Origin: a virus | Lineage: Duplodnaviria > Caudoviricetes | IMG/VR virus record: IMGVR_UViG_3300024346_000005 | Direction: 5' to 3' (one strand) | DNA: 64,000 bases | In this document: piece by piece, positions 6,428-11,864 of the stretch | Layout: each line of letters opens with the position of its first letter | How positions within the stretch are numbered: the first letter of the stretch is position 1 | Notes under the pieces: generated by a model | The model's database searches: none | Seen by the model: the letters and a program-made list of their open reading frames with translations, nothing else | What the model was told of the DNA's origin: nothing | Position numbers and translations under genes: made by a program

Positions 6428-7243
6428 GTGCCTAGTATCCGCAGAATATCCGACTTTAAACCACTCTTCACGAATCTTGCACAGACTTCTCATTATGAAG
6501 TAAGATTTGGTGGTGTAGGACCTCTTGGGGGACCACTAATGGCATATCTTTTTCGTAAAGGAATTAGTCAAAGATTTATTGCCGAAGATGCTGGATTACT
6601 TTGTTTTTCGGCATCTCTTCCAACTACTTCTTTGGCAACTGCTAATGTTAGTGGGAACTTTATGGGTATAACGGAGAAGTTTGCACACACCAGACAATAT
6701 ATTCCAATCAGTCTAGAATTTTATGTAGATAAAAATTATAATGCTCTTAAATTTATGGAAAGTTGGATGGAGTTTATTGCAAGTGGTTCCAATAATCCAA
6801 TTGGAAGTAGTCTTGCTCCAATAGGGCAGAATCGTAAGGATTATATCTCTAGAATGCAATATCCAGAATATTATAAATCTGATAGAACTACAATCACAAA
6901 GTTTGATAGAGATTATAATAGAGAAATAGAATATACTTTTATTGGACTATTTCCATCGGCAATGTCATCAATTCCAGTAAGTTATAGTTCATCAGATATT
7001 CTTAAGATGTCGGTGACTTTTGAGTATGATCGTTATATTGCAGGTAAATCATTAAGTTTGAATGAAATTATTGGCAATAATAATAATCAAATCAATAATC
7101 AAATCAATAATAATAATCAAAGCAATAATCAAAGCAATAATCAAAGAGTTGTTTATAGAACTGGACAATCTCTTGGTGAAAGTGGAGTAAGAGGTACAAT
7201 TCCAAATCAAGGAAGTGTGTTTCCTACGATTTTAAATAATTGA
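6428..7243 (+). CDS. Tail tube initiator / gp54-gp19-like baseplate protein
   Basis: CFSASLP, FYVD..Y....F.E.WM, Y.F..LFP, V.F.Y motifs; synteny. Confidence 0.7.
   Translation: MPSIRRISDFKPLFTNLAQTSHYEVRFGGVGPLGGPLMAYLFRKGISQRFIAEDAGLLCFSASLPTTSLATANVSGNFMGITEKFAHTRQYIPISLEFYVDKNYNALKFMESWMEFIASGSNNPIGSSLAPIGQNRKDYISRMQYPEYYKSDRTTITKFDRDYNREIEYTFIGLFPSAMSSIPVSYSSSDILKMSVTFEYDRYIAGKSLSLNEIIGNNNNQINNQINNNNQSNNQSNNQRVVYRTGQSLGESGVRGTIPNQGSVFPTILNN
7077..7146 (+). repeat. In-frame 12-nt tandem repeats (N/Q-rich tail)
   Basis: AATAATCAAATC and AATAATCAAAGC units. Confidence 0.85.
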
Positions 7244-7279: not shown

Positions 7280-7999
7280 ATGCCATTACCAAAAATTGCG
7301 GTGCCAACATATGAGTTGGAAGTTCCATCATTAAAAAAGAATATTAAGTATAGACCTTTTCTGGTTAAAGAAGAAAAGATTTTAATTATTGCGATGGAAA
7401 GTGAGGATACAAAACAAATTGCAGAAGCGGTAAAAACCGTAATTTCAAATTGTATTATTACGAAAGGAATCAAGGTAGAGCAACTATCAACTTTTGATAT
7501 TGAATATTTGTTCTTGAATGTCCGTGGAAAGTCAGTTGGAGAGTCGGTGGATGTTTTAATTACCTGCCCCGATGATGGAACCACACAAGTTCCAGTTTCA
7601 ATCAATCTGGATGAAATTAAAGTAAATGTAGATGAAAATCATTCAAAGGATATTAAACTTGATGATGTTCTAACTCTTCGTATGAAATATCCATCTATGC
7701 AGGAGTTCATTAAGAACAACTTTAATAATAATGAATCTGTGAGTGTAGATGATACTTTTGAGATGATTTCTGCCTGTGTAGAGCAGATTTATAGTGAAGA
7801 AGAATCTTGGAATGCTTCTGATACGACTAAAAAAGAACTAAATGAGTTTTTGGAACAACTTACTACTAATCAGTTTAAGGAAATTGAGAAGTTTTTTGAG
7901 ACGATGCCTAAACTTTCTTATACTATTAAATTGAAAAATCCAAATACTGATGTGGAAAGTGAGGTCATACTGGAGGGATTAACATCTTTTTTCGCCTAG
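7280..7999 (+). CDS. gp26: Baseplate hub subunit/chaperone gp26
   Basis: MPLPKI..PTYEL...YRPFLVKEEK...LNVRGKSVGE...EGLTSFF. Confidence 0.9.
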   Translation: MPLPKIAVPTYELEVPSLKKNIKYRPFLVKEEKILIIAMESEDTKQIAEAVKTVISNCIITKGIKVEQLSTFDIEYLFLNVRGKSVGESVDVLITCPDDGTTQVPVSINLDEIKVNVDENHSKDIKLDDVLTLRMKYPSMQEFIKNNFNNNESVSVDDTFEMISACVEQIYSEEESWNASDTTKKELNEFLEQLTTNQFKEIEKFFETMPKLSYTIKLKNPNTDVESEVILEGLTSFFA

Positions 8000-8001
8000 G
8001 A

Positions 8002-8175
8002 ATGGCTCATACTTCGTTGGAGTCATACTATAAGACTACATTTCAGTTAATGCAGCATCATAAATATTCATTAACGGAGTTAGAAAATATGTTACCTTGG
8101 GAAAAAGAAGTTTATATTACTCTTCTTTCTCAATATATTGAAGAGCAAAATCTAAAGAACCAGCAGAATGGCTAG
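8002..8175 (+). CDS. gp51: Baseplate hub assembly catalyst gp51-like, 57 aa (not in ORF track)
   Basis: Translates MAHTSLESYYKTTFQLMQHHKYSLTELENMLPWEKEVYITLLSQYIEEQNLKNQQNG. Confidence 0.85.
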   Translation: MAHTSLESYYKTTFQLMQHHKYSLTELENMLPWEKEVYITLLSQYIEEQNLKNQQNG

Positions 8176-9901
8176 TCTATCATCTCCAATTGGACCCACT
8201 ATAGATGTTGTGGCAAGAACAGTTTCTCGTTCTGTCATAAGTGGTGGTGCCGGTGGAGGTGGTGGTATTCCTGGTGGAGGTGGAGGAAGAGGTGGTGCTC
8301 TTGCCGTGCAACCTCAGGCAAGTTTAGTTAATGTTGAAAGAAATTTGGAGGTTCAAACTGTCCAAAATGTTCAACAAACTCAAGAGATTTCTGCTCTTAG
8401 AGGTACAGTAGATGCCTTACGAGCAGAAACCACAACTCTAAATAATGGTCTTGGAAATGTTTCTAATCTAATACAGCAAGATAGTGCCGTAGAGAAGCAA
8501 CAGGCATCGGCAGAAGCAGAAAGTGAAAGAAAACTTGCCGAAACAAATATTAGACTGGGGAAAGAATCTCAACTAGAACAAAAAATTACAAATGCTCTGG
8601 CAAAACCTGTTCAGGCTCTGCAGCAGAAAGTTGGTAATATATTTGGAAGAATAGGAGAGGCTCTAACTGCATTATTTGCCGGATGGTTGACTAATCAAGG
8701 AATAGAAGCACTTAAGGCAGCATCAGAAGGAAATAAAAACAAATTAGAAGAAATTAAAGATAATGTTCTTAAACATATTGGATTTGGCGTAGCTGCTATT
8801 GGTGCAATCAAAATAGGATTTGATTTGGTAATCAAAACTATTACTGGTATTACTGGAAAAATAGGTTCAATTTTACTTAAACTTGCCAAAGCTCCTCTAA
8901 AACTTTTAAGAAGTGCTCTTCAAGCTGCTCCATTAGTGGGAGGTCTTTTTGGTGGTCCAAAACCTGGTGGTCCAAAACCTCCTGCTGGACCTGGTGTAAA
9001 ACCTCCAGCATCAGGAAATCCAATTGCAAGAGGTGTGGGTGCAGTTGCCAATTTTGCTGGAAAAGCACTTACTGCTGTTGGTGGTGTTATGGATGCTGCA
9101 TCCGGGCAATATACAGACTCTGCTCTTGCCGCTGGTGCTTTACTTGCTCCCGGAGCACTCAAAATTCCTTTTGGTCTTGCATATGGTCTAGATTCAATTA
9201 GAGAAATGTTTGGTGGTAATATTTTTGGTAAAAATCCAAATGAACCAGAAAAACCACCAACAACACCAGCGGCAAAAGTCTTACCAACAACTCCTAAGGC
9301 AGGAAATCCAAAACCAGCACCAAAACCAGAAACACCACCACCAACAATAGTAGGACCAATAGAAGAACCAGCGGCAGCACCGGCAGCAGTGCAACCACAA
9401 AACTCTATGTTGTCTCAACCAATATCAGAGGCAGCACCAATATCTCAACCACAAACACCGGCAATTCCTCCACCAAGTCCCGAAATGGTGAAAAACTTTG
9501 AGATGGCTTGGAAATATAAAGATAACTCTATGGCAAGAGGAAGAATTGAGTCTGCCTGGAATAATATGACTTATGAACAGCAACAGCAGGCAAAGGAATG
9601 GGCAAAATCAACAGACAAGGATTGGACTGAAATGAAGTTGGTCGAAAAACCACCTACAGTCCAAGCAGTACCACTACCATCAGCACAGGTTCAACCACTT
9701 CCTAAACCCACTCAAAATGTAGGAGAACTTACTGAACCGGCACCGAATGTGGTAATGATGTCATCGGGTCAAAGTAACAATCAACAATCTTCTATTTCAC
9801 AGGCACCAACGAATGGAACCGATACTCCTTTGATTAGTTCTTCTAATCCTGATAATTTTTATGTTCTTTACTCTCAACTGAATTATAATGTGGTGATATA
9901 A
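8168..9901 (+). CDS. Tail/baseplate structural protein, tape-measure(gp29)-like with Pro-rich linker
   Basis: Coiled-coil and Ala/Gly-rich helical composition; position after gp26/gp51. Confidence 0.55.
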   Translation: MASLSSPIGPTIDVVARTVSRSVISGGAGGGGGIPGGGGGRGGALAVQPQASLVNVERNLEVQTVQNVQQTQEISALRGTVDALRAETTTLNNGLGNVSNLIQQDSAVEKQQASAEAESERKLAETNIRLGKESQLEQKITNALAKPVQALQQKVGNIFGRIGEALTALFAGWLTNQGIEALKAASEGNKNKLEEIKDNVLKHIGFGVAAIGAIKIGFDLVIKTITGITGKIGSILLKLAKAPLKLLRSALQAAPLVGGLFGGPKPGGPKPPAGPGVKPPASGNPIARGVGAVANFAGKALTAVGGVMDAASGQYTDSALAAGALLAPGALKIPFGLAYGLDSIREMFGGNIFGKNPNEPEKPPTTPAAKVLPTTPKAGNPKPAPKPETPPPTIVGPIEEPAAAPAAVQPQNSMLSQPISEAAPISQPQTPAIPPPSPEMVKNFEMAWKYKDNSMARGRIESAWNNMTYEQQQQAKEWAKSTDKDWTEMKLVEKPPTVQAVPLPSAQVQPLPKPTQNVGELTEPAPNVVMMSSGQSNNQQSSISQAPTNGTDTPLISSSNPDNFYVLYSQLNYNVVI

Positions 9902-9902
9902 T

Positions 9903-11864
9903 ATGGCAATCTCATCACCACTTCAATCAAAAGTTCCAACAGGTTCAACAAAAACGATTAGAAAGTTACAGACTATTCTACTCAATAGAACAAAAGTTAA
10001 ACGAGAAATATTTCAAAGGCAAACAATCTTACAAAATCGTAGAATAGAAAATGAAAGAAGAAAACAGAGAGAGGATGAACTTGAGGCACCAAATCTTGTA
10101 ACAAAACCTCGTGGAGCAGCAGGATTAATTGCAGGTAGTGCCAAAGGATTTTTTGAAAGATTGGTGGGATTCCTTAGTTATTTGACCGCAGGATGGATAA
10201 TTAATAATCTACCCACTTGGATTTCGATGGGTAAAGAGTTTATTGCCAGAACTCAACAAATGGGTAAGATACTTGGAAACTTTGTTGGTAATGTTACGAC
10301 CGTATTTACTAAGTTTACAACACTTTTGGGTGCATCTTTACAAAATTTAATGACATTTGATTTTTCTGATACTTCTGGAAGAGTTAAAACTGCTTTTGAT
10401 GACCTAAATTTAAGTGTGGAAAATTGGGGTACTGACTTTGAGAATGCAATCAAATTAATAACAACTCCATTAAGTGAGGGTATTGCTTCTGGAGAGGATG
10501 CCAGACCACTCGGAACTGAAAATACTAATGAGGGTGCCTATGAACGAACTGCACCTTATAGTGGTAGTCAAGGTCCAGAAACATCTGGTGGAAGGGTTAG
10601 TTCGCAAGCAGTATATTCTTATCTTAAAAGTTTAGGAGTTTCTGAAATACACGCTTTAGGTATATTGGCAAATATTCAAGGAGAGAGTGGTTTTCAAATT
10701 GGAGCTCAAGAAAAAGGTGATAGTAAGCAAGGAGTTGGTTTATTTCAATATACATTTCCTAGCCGAAAACAAGCATTTTTAAAAGCAGTTCCTGATTATA
10801 AAACTAACTGGAAAGGGCAGATTGATTTTGCAATAAAGAGTGACCCGAATACTCCGTTATATTTAAGAAAACAGTTTAGTTCTCCGGAACAAGCAGCAGA
10901 TGATTTTATGATACAGTGGGAGAATCCGGATCCAAGAGTTTATGCTGATAGGAGAAAAACACATAATGCTTTTATTAAATCATTCAAACCTGGAAGTTCT
11001 CAATCACAAGCATCTCAACAATCATCTGCACCATCAAGACCAGTATCAACAGGAACTACATCATTAATACCACAAACTGGTGCTGGTGGTTTTCTTCAAG
11101 GTGCTTCTGGAGATGGTAAAGAAGATCAGGGACGTTATGGCGTTCATTTCCATTTAAGCCCACCAAATATGACTGAAGATGGTTATAAAAAAGCTAGGGA
11201 TGTTGCTTTTGCTGCTGTTAAAGCAATGTTGGCTAGAGGTTCTAGGATTCATTTTGGCAATATCAAAGAAGATCTTCTTGCTGGCGCTTCAGATTCTCAA
11301 ATAAAATCAATGATTCTACGTGAGCAAAAAGCTCACAGTAAAAAAGGAAGAACTCAGGGTGGAATAGATCTTCAAGAAATAAATCCAAATGTTGGACCAA
11401 CTATTGCTGGTTTGCCTGGATCTAAAATTGCTTTTCCTCTTGCAGTAGGAAAAGTATCGTCTCTATCTAGTGGAAGTGGATATGGTAGAGAAGCTGAAGT
11501 TCTTGGTAGTGGCGGCGTAACGCTAGCTCACGGAGCAGCGGGATCTACTGCAAGTAATGTTTCGGGAGCATCACCACGGGCACAACTAGCATCTCAATCA
11601 GCAACACCACAAGCAAAACCCCCAACACCAGCACAAATAACACCAACCGGTACTCCACAAAATCCACAAATAAGTCAATCACTAGCACAAGAGAGAACCG
11701 GACCAACCGTGATTGTTTCTCAAAATCCTTCATCACCGGCACAACAAATGATGTCTTCTGGTGGTGGAGGTTCTTCTGGTGGAGGGTCTTCACCAATAAG
11801 TGATTTTGCCTTGTTAAATAATTTTATAAAAAATAAACTTCTACTCGACCTCGCTTACCTATAA
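9903..11864 (+). CDS. Tail structural protein with tail-lysozyme-like and M23-like domains
   Basis: GILANIQGESGF...GVGLFQYT...W; later H...GGIDL...GYG...TLAHG. Confidence 0.7.
   Translation: MAISSPLQSKVPTGSTKTIRKLQTILLNRTKVKREIFQRQTILQNRRIENERRKQREDELEAPNLVTKPRGAAGLIAGSAKGFFERLVGFLSYLTAGWIINNLPTWISMGKEFIARTQQMGKILGNFVGNVTTVFTKFTTLLGASLQNLMTFDFSDTSGRVKTAFDDLNLSVENWGTDFENAIKLITTPLSEGIASGEDARPLGTENTNEGAYERTAPYSGSQGPETSGGRVSSQAVYSYLKSLGVSEIHALGILANIQGESGFQIGAQEKGDSKQGVGLFQYTFPSRKQAFLKAVPDYKTNWKGQIDFAIKSDPNTPLYLRKQFSSPEQAADDFMIQWENPDPRVYADRRKTHNAFIKSFKPGSSQSQASQQSSAPSRPVSTGTTSLIPQTGAGGFLQGASGDGKEDQGRYGVHFHLSPPNMTEDGYKKARDVAFAAVKAMLARGSRIHFGNIKEDLLAGASDSQIKSMILREQKAHSKKGRTQGGIDLQEINPNVGPTIAGLPGSKIAFPLAVGKVSSLSSGSGYGREAEVLGSGGVTLAHGAAGSTASNVSGASPRAQLASQSATPQAKPPTPAQITPTGTPQNPQISQSLAQERTGPTVIVSQNPSSPAQQMMSSGGGGSSGGGSSPISDFALLNNFIKNKLLLDLAYL

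Follow-up and report, generated by a model that had tools for sequence, protein, structure and literature searches.

Introduction

The bacteriophage T4 proteins gp26 (208 amino acids) and gp51 (249 amino acids) are chaperones of baseplate hub assembly (Leiman et al., 2010, PMC3004832, Table 2), and gp51 is required yet absent from the particle (Leiman et al., 2010, PMC3004832). In cyanophages, gp51 has been described as ~20% of its usual length and lacking the first ~200 residues, in phage Aeh1 as "missing," and in marine vibriophages again as ~20% of normal length (Sullivan et al., 2010, PMC3037559). The same puzzle is posed by the DNA studied here, a stretch of 64,000 nucleotides (nt) from a tailed virus of the class Caudoviricetes (IMG/VR record IMGVR_UViG_3300024346_000005), hereafter the window, in which a complete gene for gp26 is followed by an open reading frame (ORF) of only 57 codons that resembles the end of gp51. 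Is this ORF a gene in its own right, or is it the end of a longer protein? A sequence-only reading of the window had suggested that T4-like cyanophages may make gp26 together with a gp26–gp51 fusion by a -1 frameshift. This suggestion is supported herein by the conservation of the site, by lineages in which the gp51 part has no start codon, and by the architecture of T4 gp51, and we consider a programmed -1 ribosomal frameshift at the heptamer T TTT TTC (positions 7987–7993), one codon before the gp26 stop, to be highly probable. Sequence comparison establishes how the site is built and conserved, that the start-less region is translated in the -1 frame, and that the architecture matches T4 gp51; slippage by the ribosome, its efficiency, the roles of the flanking RNA elements, and the targets of the putative chaperones are what we infer from them.

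Anatomy of the Slippery Site

The elements of the site, in positions of the window, are as follows.

7280–7999, plus strand: gp26 ORF, 239 amino acids, the zero-frame product and predicted short chaperone form
7972–7977, plus strand: Shine-Dalgarno (SD)-like GGAGGG lying 10 nt before the heptamer, possibly an upstream stimulator of dnaX type
7987–7993, plus strand: slippery heptamer T TTT TTC, in X XXY YYZ phase in the gp26 frame
7993–8175, plus strand: putative -1 extension after the slip, R-L-G followed by the 57-amino-acid gp51-like C-domain, predicting a 298-amino-acid gp26–gp51 fusion
7997–7999, plus strand: gp26 stop codon TAG, one codon 3′ of the heptamer
7999–8029, plus strand: predicted stem-loop, arms 7999–8008 and 8020–8029, core 8002–8008 with 8020–8026, 11-nt loop
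8002–8175, plus strand: gp51-like ORF, 57 codons, -1 relative to gp26, no intervening stop

The two proteins belong to recognizable families. Window gp26 matches PF12322 (T4_baseplate) over profile positions 2–219 of 219 with an expectation value (E) of 2.4e-73 and 246.9 bits (cut-off, 24.5), and phrog_150 at E 5.7e-81. The 57-amino-acid ORF matches phrog_634, "baseplate hub assembly catalyst," at E 1.8e-25, over profile positions 60–115 of 121 only, and these matches bear out the assignments as gp26 and gp51 made in the sequence-only reading. No family was matched by the 57-amino-acid ORF in a local copy of Pfam; PF28602 is listed for its relatives in precomputed tables. A sequence search of solved structures with window gp26 and T4 gp51 returned no match at E <= 1.

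Read from the window sequence, the last gp26 codons are TTA ACA TCT TTT TTC GCC TAG. The -1 frame reads TTT TTT CGC CTA GGA ATG at the junction and runs on into the 57-amino-acid ORF; it is open from 7963 to 8175, and the nearest upstream stop is TGA at 7960–7962. Most ribosomes would stop at the TAG and release gp26 of 239 amino acids, whereas a fraction would slip back by one base, both tRNA-Phe being re-paired on UUU UUU, read CGC CTA GGA, and translate the gp51-like ORF as well, giving 298 amino acids, that is, the whole gp26 domain followed by a helical C-terminal tail of ~60 amino acids. The predicted fusion carries the junction ..LTSFF-RLG-MAHTS.., and its slip-specific peptides would be ..EGLTSFFR (..EGLTSFFA in the zero frame) and then LGMAHTSLESYYK. 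The gp51 ATG at 8002 lies 2 nt after the gp26 stop and inside the stem; the sole purine-rich run nearby, AGGA, directly abuts it, and at a spacing of 0 it provides no usable SD sequence. The X XXY YYZ site in the gp26 frame, the open -1 frame into the ORF at 8002, the ATG with no obvious SD sequence, and a fusion of ~300 amino acids with the junction LTSFFRLGMAH had all been pointed out from the sequence alone, and each was found again here. Taken by itself, the window is weak evidence because just five codons must be open; chance is excluded by comparison with related phages, in which the heptamer is kept in all 125 distinct junction contexts.

Conservation of the Heptamer

These contexts represent 173 related loci: those from IMG/VR were retrieved by searching with the gp26 of the window, of syn9, and of an Aeromonas phage, and 18 isolate records supplied the rest. 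The sequence NNT TTT TTY is present in the gp26 frame in 125 of 125 contexts (121 TTC and 4 TTT), and the gp26 stop lies one codon past it in 123. Conservation had been named in the sequence-only reading as the first check of the proposed frameshift, and throughout the set a slippery T TTT TTY goes together with the -1 offset and an open -1 frame. Immediately ahead of the run stands TCT, AGT, AAT, GAT, GCT, or GGT, codons for five amino acids that all end in T. In the same gp26 genes, the T-ending fraction of Ser codons is 0.63, and TTT and TTC account for 0.735 and 0.265 of Phe codons, respectively. An internal Phe-Phe of gp26, within a K-F-F-E motif, is encoded by TTC TTT or by TTT TTT after G or A, and it takes the form T TTT TTC in 1 of 140 cases. 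The heptamer is retained in 21 of 21 representatives when the set is thinned to -1 peptides less than 70% identical.

The carriers include freshwater and marine cyanomyoviruses, the pelagiphage Mosig, Caulobacter phage Cr30, Sinorhizobium phage phiM12, Agrobacterium phage OLIVR6, Stenotrophomonas phage Ps15, Ralstonia phage RSP15, Cronobacter phage S13, Aeromonas phages Aeh1 and AsFcp_2, and a KVP40-like vibriophage; Straboviridae outside the Tevenvirinae, e.g., Aeh1 and the KVP40-like phage, are thus among them. The signal persists to ~25–35% gp26 identity over several phage families, while adjacent synonymous sites vary.

Lineages in Which the gp51 Part Has No Start Codon

The locus can also be explained with no recoding, by a separate 57-amino-acid gp51 that is initiated at ATG 8002 through termination-reinitiation, the T-run being kept for the C-terminal Phe-Phe. 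We consider this improbable. It draws on the position of the window's ATG, 2 nt after the stop, with an ATG at the same codon in 76 of 125 contexts; on Vibrio phage K448, in which the heptamer is absent and an ATG overlaps the stop (described below); and on T4 gp26, which keeps Phe-Phe at the junction point. The need for Phe-Phe sits poorly with the codons, since, contrary to what the codon usage given above would predict, neither the third base of the preceding codon nor the first Phe codon (TTT) ever varies, whereas the internal Phe-Phe of the same proteins varies freely. The window's ATG has no spaced SD sequence and lies within a stem, which likewise argues against efficient separate initiation.

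The distribution of start codons also speaks against it. The first ATG occurs at codon 4–8 after the heptamer in 96 contexts, whereas in 26 cyanophage and pelagiphage contexts, and in the Aeromonas phages, it lies 20–35 codons in, within the conserved domain. The start-less contexts include syn9, P-SSM7, S-T4, and Mosig; in syn9 the -1-frame region upstream of the first ATG reads VALLHNNLETYYESNFALMHHHK. Among the 26, there is no ATG, GTG, or TTG before the conserved coding-like region and no shared near-cognate start, the codon that overlaps the stop being ATA, GTA, CTA, TTA, or ATT.

Codons 4–19 after the heptamer were analyzed in these 26 contexts; they are free of overlap constraint because they lie downstream of the gp26 stop. 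In the -1 frame, entropy at codon positions 1, 2, and 3 is 0.74, 0.59, and 1.27 bits, respectively, and synonymous to non-synonymous differences number 1687:1882, in comparison with 277:3373 and 364:3119 in the other two frames. By these sequence measures, the start-less gp51 region clearly evolves as coding in the -1 frame only.

Annotation of this region is irregular. Stubs of 31–47 amino acids are annotated as gp51 in S-T4, syn9, P-SSM7, Mosig, and OLIVR6, no gp51 is annotated in AsFcp_2 and Cronobacter phage S13, and a joined coding sequence occurs in 0 of the 18 frameshift-type isolate records that were opened. Aeh1 has the heptamer and a start-less -1 ORF. The short gp51 of cyanophages, its lost ~200 residues, and the "missing" gp51 of Aeh1 would all be explained by the frameshift, which would thereby account for a long-standing oddity of T4-like genomics; hundreds of deposited genomes would then carry this gene mis-annotated as a stub or not at all.

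Correspondence With T4 gp51 and the Two-Gene Phages

T4 genes 26 and 51 are divergently transcribed, and their joining by a frameshift is therefore impossible. Residues 1–201 of T4 gp51 match the full PF12322 profile (E 3.9e-52); gp51 is thus a paralogue of gp26 with an additional tail of ~48 amino acids, and this tail is homologous to the cyanophage "gp51" ORF. When the virtual frameshift products are combined into a profile, it aligns to residues 17–245 of T4 gp51 as one domain spanning the junction and to T4 gp26 only as far as the junction. The fusion, whose comparison with single-chain T4 gp51 had been suggested in the sequence-only reading, is hence collinear with gp51 and of the same architecture in profile alignment. 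This architecture, a gp26-like domain followed by a tail of the pattern ..NF.L....Y/W.....P.E.., is shown in the window only by the predicted frameshift product. The two predicted products would correspond to the hub assembly chaperones gp26 and gp51 of T4.

Copy number agrees with this correspondence. As counted on complete genomes of relatives, PF12322 is present once each in S-SRM01, syn9, P-SSM7, and Aeh1 and twice in T4. T4 and the window phage therefore share the protein family and the product pair, a short form and a long form with an extra tail; they differ in that T4 has two separate divergent paralogous genes and no slippery site, whereas the window phage, with the copy number taken from its relatives, would have one PF12322 gene and a -1 extension.

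The negative control consisted of phages in which gene 26 is divergent and gene 51 is of full length. Eight such phages from eight genera were used (T4, SEA1, ABTNLsp5, Konradin, ECD7, phiAS4, Riv-10, and an IMG/VR relative), drawn mainly from isolate records; a T4 gp26 query in IMG/VR gave 7 loci. The heptamer is present in 0 of the 8, Phe-Phe being encoded by TTC TTT after G or A or by G TTT TTT, or being lost. The slippery nucleotides are thus kept exactly where the fusion is otherwise unavailable, and the use of non-slippery codons by two-gene phages that retain Phe-Phe argues against retention of the T-run for the dipeptide itself.

Whether the frameshift is the older state is a question on which we see the chances as even. 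On that reading, it would be the ancestral and general route of the T4 superfamily to a pair of chaperones for tape measure and hub, gp26 would be a true, enlarged homologue of the lambda gpG type, and T4 and its close relatives would be derived, with the gene duplicated and the frameshift product fixed as a gene of its own, gene 51. The frameshift would, on the same reading, occur in the Kyanoviridae, the pelagiphages, the T4-like phages of rhizobia, Caulobacter, and Stenotrophomonas, and the Straboviridae outside the Tevenvirinae.

Two smaller observations concern these proteins. Gene 26′ of T4 is annotated as an internal in-frame product comprising the C-terminal 95 amino acids of gp26; gene 26 of T4 is thus the source of two proteins as well, by another route. 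Furthermore, CPKCG-type motifs occur in gp26 or gp51 outside the cyanophages (~60 nt before the gp26 stop in four relatives, and within residues 77–102 of T4 gp51); T4 gp51 has weak zinc-ribbon matches, window gp26 has just TCPDD at the corresponding first site, and cyanophages may have lost an element that binds zinc.

Candidate RNA Signals Around the Slippery Site

In the Escherichia coli dnaX gene, the -1 frameshift at A AAA AAG is flanked by an SD-like element on the 5′ side and a stem-loop on the 3′ side; in signals of this type the former is expected ~10 nt upstream of the heptamer and the latter 5–9 nt downstream. The window has the same tripartite layout, with GGAGG at 7972–7976, ~10 nt upstream of the heptamer, and the stem 5–8 nt downstream of it. 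The two systems differ in the heptamer, which is U UUU UUC here, and in the outcome: the shifted frame of dnaX stops at once and gives a shorter product, whereas in the window the shift would lengthen the protein.

The Glu codon of the conserved L-E-G-L, in which the SD-like motif resides, is GAG in ~78% of contexts and in 30% of cases in the rest of gp26. For the stem-loop, an alignment of 26 sequences from the window's clade has 88.8% of its stem cells paired, with compensatory pairs at positions 21–35 (UA 17, GC 6, and AU 2) and 19–37 (GU 17, AU 5, and UG 2); some of the compensatory changes couple an amino-acid change on one arm with a synonymous change on the other, and the observed score was reached by 0 of 500 shuffles. 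In 53 representatives, the 53 nt that follow the heptamer have a higher folding stability than synonymous-codon shuffles (mean z -1.82, half of them below -2), in comparison with a mean z of -0.46 against the same type of shuffle for a control segment further downstream. These analyses suggest that the hairpin, 5–8 nt downstream of the heptamer, and the SD-like element, 10 nt upstream as in dnaX, probably stimulate the slip; the 5′ arm of the stem includes the gp51 AUG, which it would also bury. The combination of U UUU UUC, SD-like element, and hairpin would constitute a natural recoding cassette for cyanobacteria, SAR11, and alpha- and gamma-proteobacteria.

An identical protein would arise if RNA polymerase, rather than the ribosome, slipped on the run of six T and added one U, such that a minority of mRNAs held gp26 and gp51 in one frame. 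We judge this still less probable than separate initiation. The conserved element is indeed a homopolymer run, and rare database proteins (P0014 and P0016) contain both parts in frame, although they are singletons and possibly reflect sequencing indels. Productive transcriptional slippage is, however, known mainly for runs of ~9 or more. Here the run is just six T and is closed by C in 121 of 125 contexts against the codon bias, which indicates that a longer T-run is avoided, not favored; and the flanking elements, a hairpin 5–8 nt downstream and an SD-like motif 10 nt upstream, are of the kind that stimulates ribosomal frameshifting. No indel in the T-run was found in metatranscriptome contigs (Logan) of relatives that bridge the site, though contigs cannot reveal minority forms, strand, or translation. 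The bridging contigs derive from marine, lake, and river libraries, are 85–99% alike, and cover gp26 and gp51 of relatives (window 7300–8900). Habitat labels are mixed, the DNA holders being marine and the closest isolate, S-SRM01, coming from a freshwater reservoir.

Finally, a functionless juxtaposition in which heptamer and offset are kept by descent alone is hardly credible: five open codons suffice within the window and all compared phages are kin, but the signal survives to the low gp26 identities noted above across several families while neighboring synonymous sites vary, and it is lost exactly in the lineages with a full-length gene 51.

Several points weigh against the proposed ribosomal frameshift or limit it. 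The support for every member of the group comes from sequence comparison, RNA folding, and structural modeling. The loci are kin, and raw counts overstate their independence. In Vibrio phage K448 (OZ196323.1; locus 2150–2440), the gp26 ending TCA CTT TTC AAG TAA lacks an X XXY YYZ heptamer, and the start codon of the gp51-like -1 ORF shares bases with the stop (TAATG), so that the C-domain can apparently be made separately in at least one lineage. Among the RNA elements, the SD-like motif overlaps the conserved residues E-G, the window hairpin has a minimum free energy of -10.7 kcal/mol but a z of just -1.1 against dinucleotide shuffles, the subgroup in the 26-sequence alignment was picked by eye on the look of the 3′ arm, and the hairpin differs between clades. 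Separate initiation of the 57-amino-acid protein is possible in the window given its own ATG, and a free 57-amino-acid protein may be made besides the fusion in this phage. As a side observation, ~76 Vibrio records matched gp26, and many may share the K448 layout.

Putative Chaperone Fold and Comparison With Lambda G/GT

A conserved -1 frameshift of tail assembly chaperone genes has reportedly been described, with gpG and gpGT in lambda and E and E+E′ in P2 as its products; systems of this type are expected to have a downstream ORF with no start of its own, to make the two products at a fixed ratio, to need both for building the tail, and to have neither in the virion. The phenomenon is thus known for such genes, and the present analysis would place it in the T4 superfamily. 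A full-text literature search, from which subscription journals were largely absent, found no paper describing a gp26–gp51 frameshift.

The fold was approached through an AlphaFold2 model of P0014, a database protein that is an in-frame fusion and was used as a foldable proxy only (alignment A2). The model has a mean predicted local distance difference test score of 90.2; its gp26 domain is alpha/beta, its C-terminal tail is made of three helices, and confidence drops where the two join. In an exhaustive structural comparison, residues 1–~90 matched HK97 2ob9_B (Z 8.0, root-mean-square deviation 3.7, 84 of 104 residues aligned), followed by 3fgx_B (Z 7.7) and Bacillus subtilis YqbN 3klu_A (Z 7.2). 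All three are tail assembly chaperones, and the rows below them (Z <= 5.3) are generic helical matches to the tail. With the same model, Foldseek returned nothing at E < 1e-3 and placed 2ob9_B third, at a probability of 0.66. The matches of Z 7–8 span just ~90 residues and lie near the level that the tool flags as a possibly common arrangement, which weighs against a close reading of them. Overall, the model lends moderate support to a gpG-like module within gp26, and the analogy with G/GT drawn in the sequence-only reading gains from this likeness of the gp26 N-terminal part to solved chaperones.

P0014 is one of four metagenomic proteins (P0014, P0016, P0004, and P0010) that contain gp26 and the gp51 tail in one frame, seemingly through homopolymer-length errors or rare variants of the T-run. 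Such longer proteins were considered as evidence for the fusion and were set aside: they form singleton clusters only, the junctions of P0004 and P0010 are garbled, those of P0014 and P0016 equal the -1 product, and homopolymer indels are their probable origin.

By fold, gene position, and logic, the predicted pair would resemble the lambda G/GT chaperones that act on the tape-measure protein. In both systems the upstream ORF carries an X XXY YYZ site close to its 3′ end. A location between a tube-fold gene and tape-measure-like genes, the latter weakly so in the window, would also be shared, as would an abundant short product with a minor, C-terminally extended one; the gp26 N-terminal part, as modeled, resembles solved chaperones of this class (HK97 2ob9 and YqbN 3klu, as above). 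The differences are that gp26, with ~240 amino acids, is about twice the gpG-type size and has extra domains, that its extension is short (~60 amino acids), and that the likeness was seen at the level of structure. Furthermore, descriptions of the T4-type proteins make them factors of baseplate-hub assembly and not tube or tape-measure chaperones, with the exception of one RefSeq annotation: in Acinetobacter phage Konradin (NC_049479.1; locus 378–1845), both gp26 and gp51 are named "tape measure protein assembly chaperone." The idea is thus already present in annotation, although no paper was found for it. A complex prediction of the gp51 C-domain (alignment A4) with the upstream tube-fold protein (alignment A3), modeled on the lambda T domain binding the tube protein, gave no answer (score 0.00) and bears neither way on binding. 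If the likeness holds, it would connect gp26 and gp51, two T4 hub factors that are poorly understood, with the well-studied G/GT chaperone logic and so provide a testable model of tape-measure handling in T4-like phages.

Neighboring Genes

The site lies in a tail and baseplate module of T4 type, and three of its genes flank the pair.

6428–7243, plus strand: upstream tube-fold protein (gp54/gp19-like tube initiator), 271 amino acids; phrog_45 "tail tube" at E 1.7e-42, PF23849 Phage_TTP_2 at E 1.4e-16
8168–9901, plus strand: downstream protein of 577 amino acids with a Gly-rich N-terminus, a candidate tape-measure or internal tail protein by gene position
9903–11864, plus strand: downstream protein of 653 amino acids; PF18013 Phage_lysozyme2 at E 6e-19, phrog_9570 "tail length tape measure protein" at E 3.5e-6

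Annotations in Mosig, AsFcp_2, and S13 name the counterpart of the upstream gene a baseplate tail tube initiator, and beyond the two long proteins follow a phrog_350 tail protein and a gp5-like spike. No NCBIfam family was matched by gp26, gp51, or the three downstream proteins. The two genes next to gp51 had been called tape-measure-like in the sequence-only reading. In favor of this, relatives' records name the equivalents of both genes tape measure-like, and the second has the phrog_9570 match together with a tail-lysozyme domain; against it, neither protein has significant pairwise similarity to T4 gp29, and the sole family match of the 577-amino-acid protein is to phrog_35029, a family with no assigned function. 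A tape-measure identity of the two proteins is thus weakly supported at the sequence level.

The start of the 577-amino-acid gene shows further details. Its ATG at 8168 overlaps the last codons and the stop (8173–8175) of the gp51 frame, so that ribosomes ending the extension could couple directly into this tape-measure-like gene. Records of relatives describe its counterpart as a transmembrane, coil-containing, or tail-lysozyme protein. The protein opens with a Gly-rich, low-complexity segment (window 8168–8330) encoded by runs of GGN codons.

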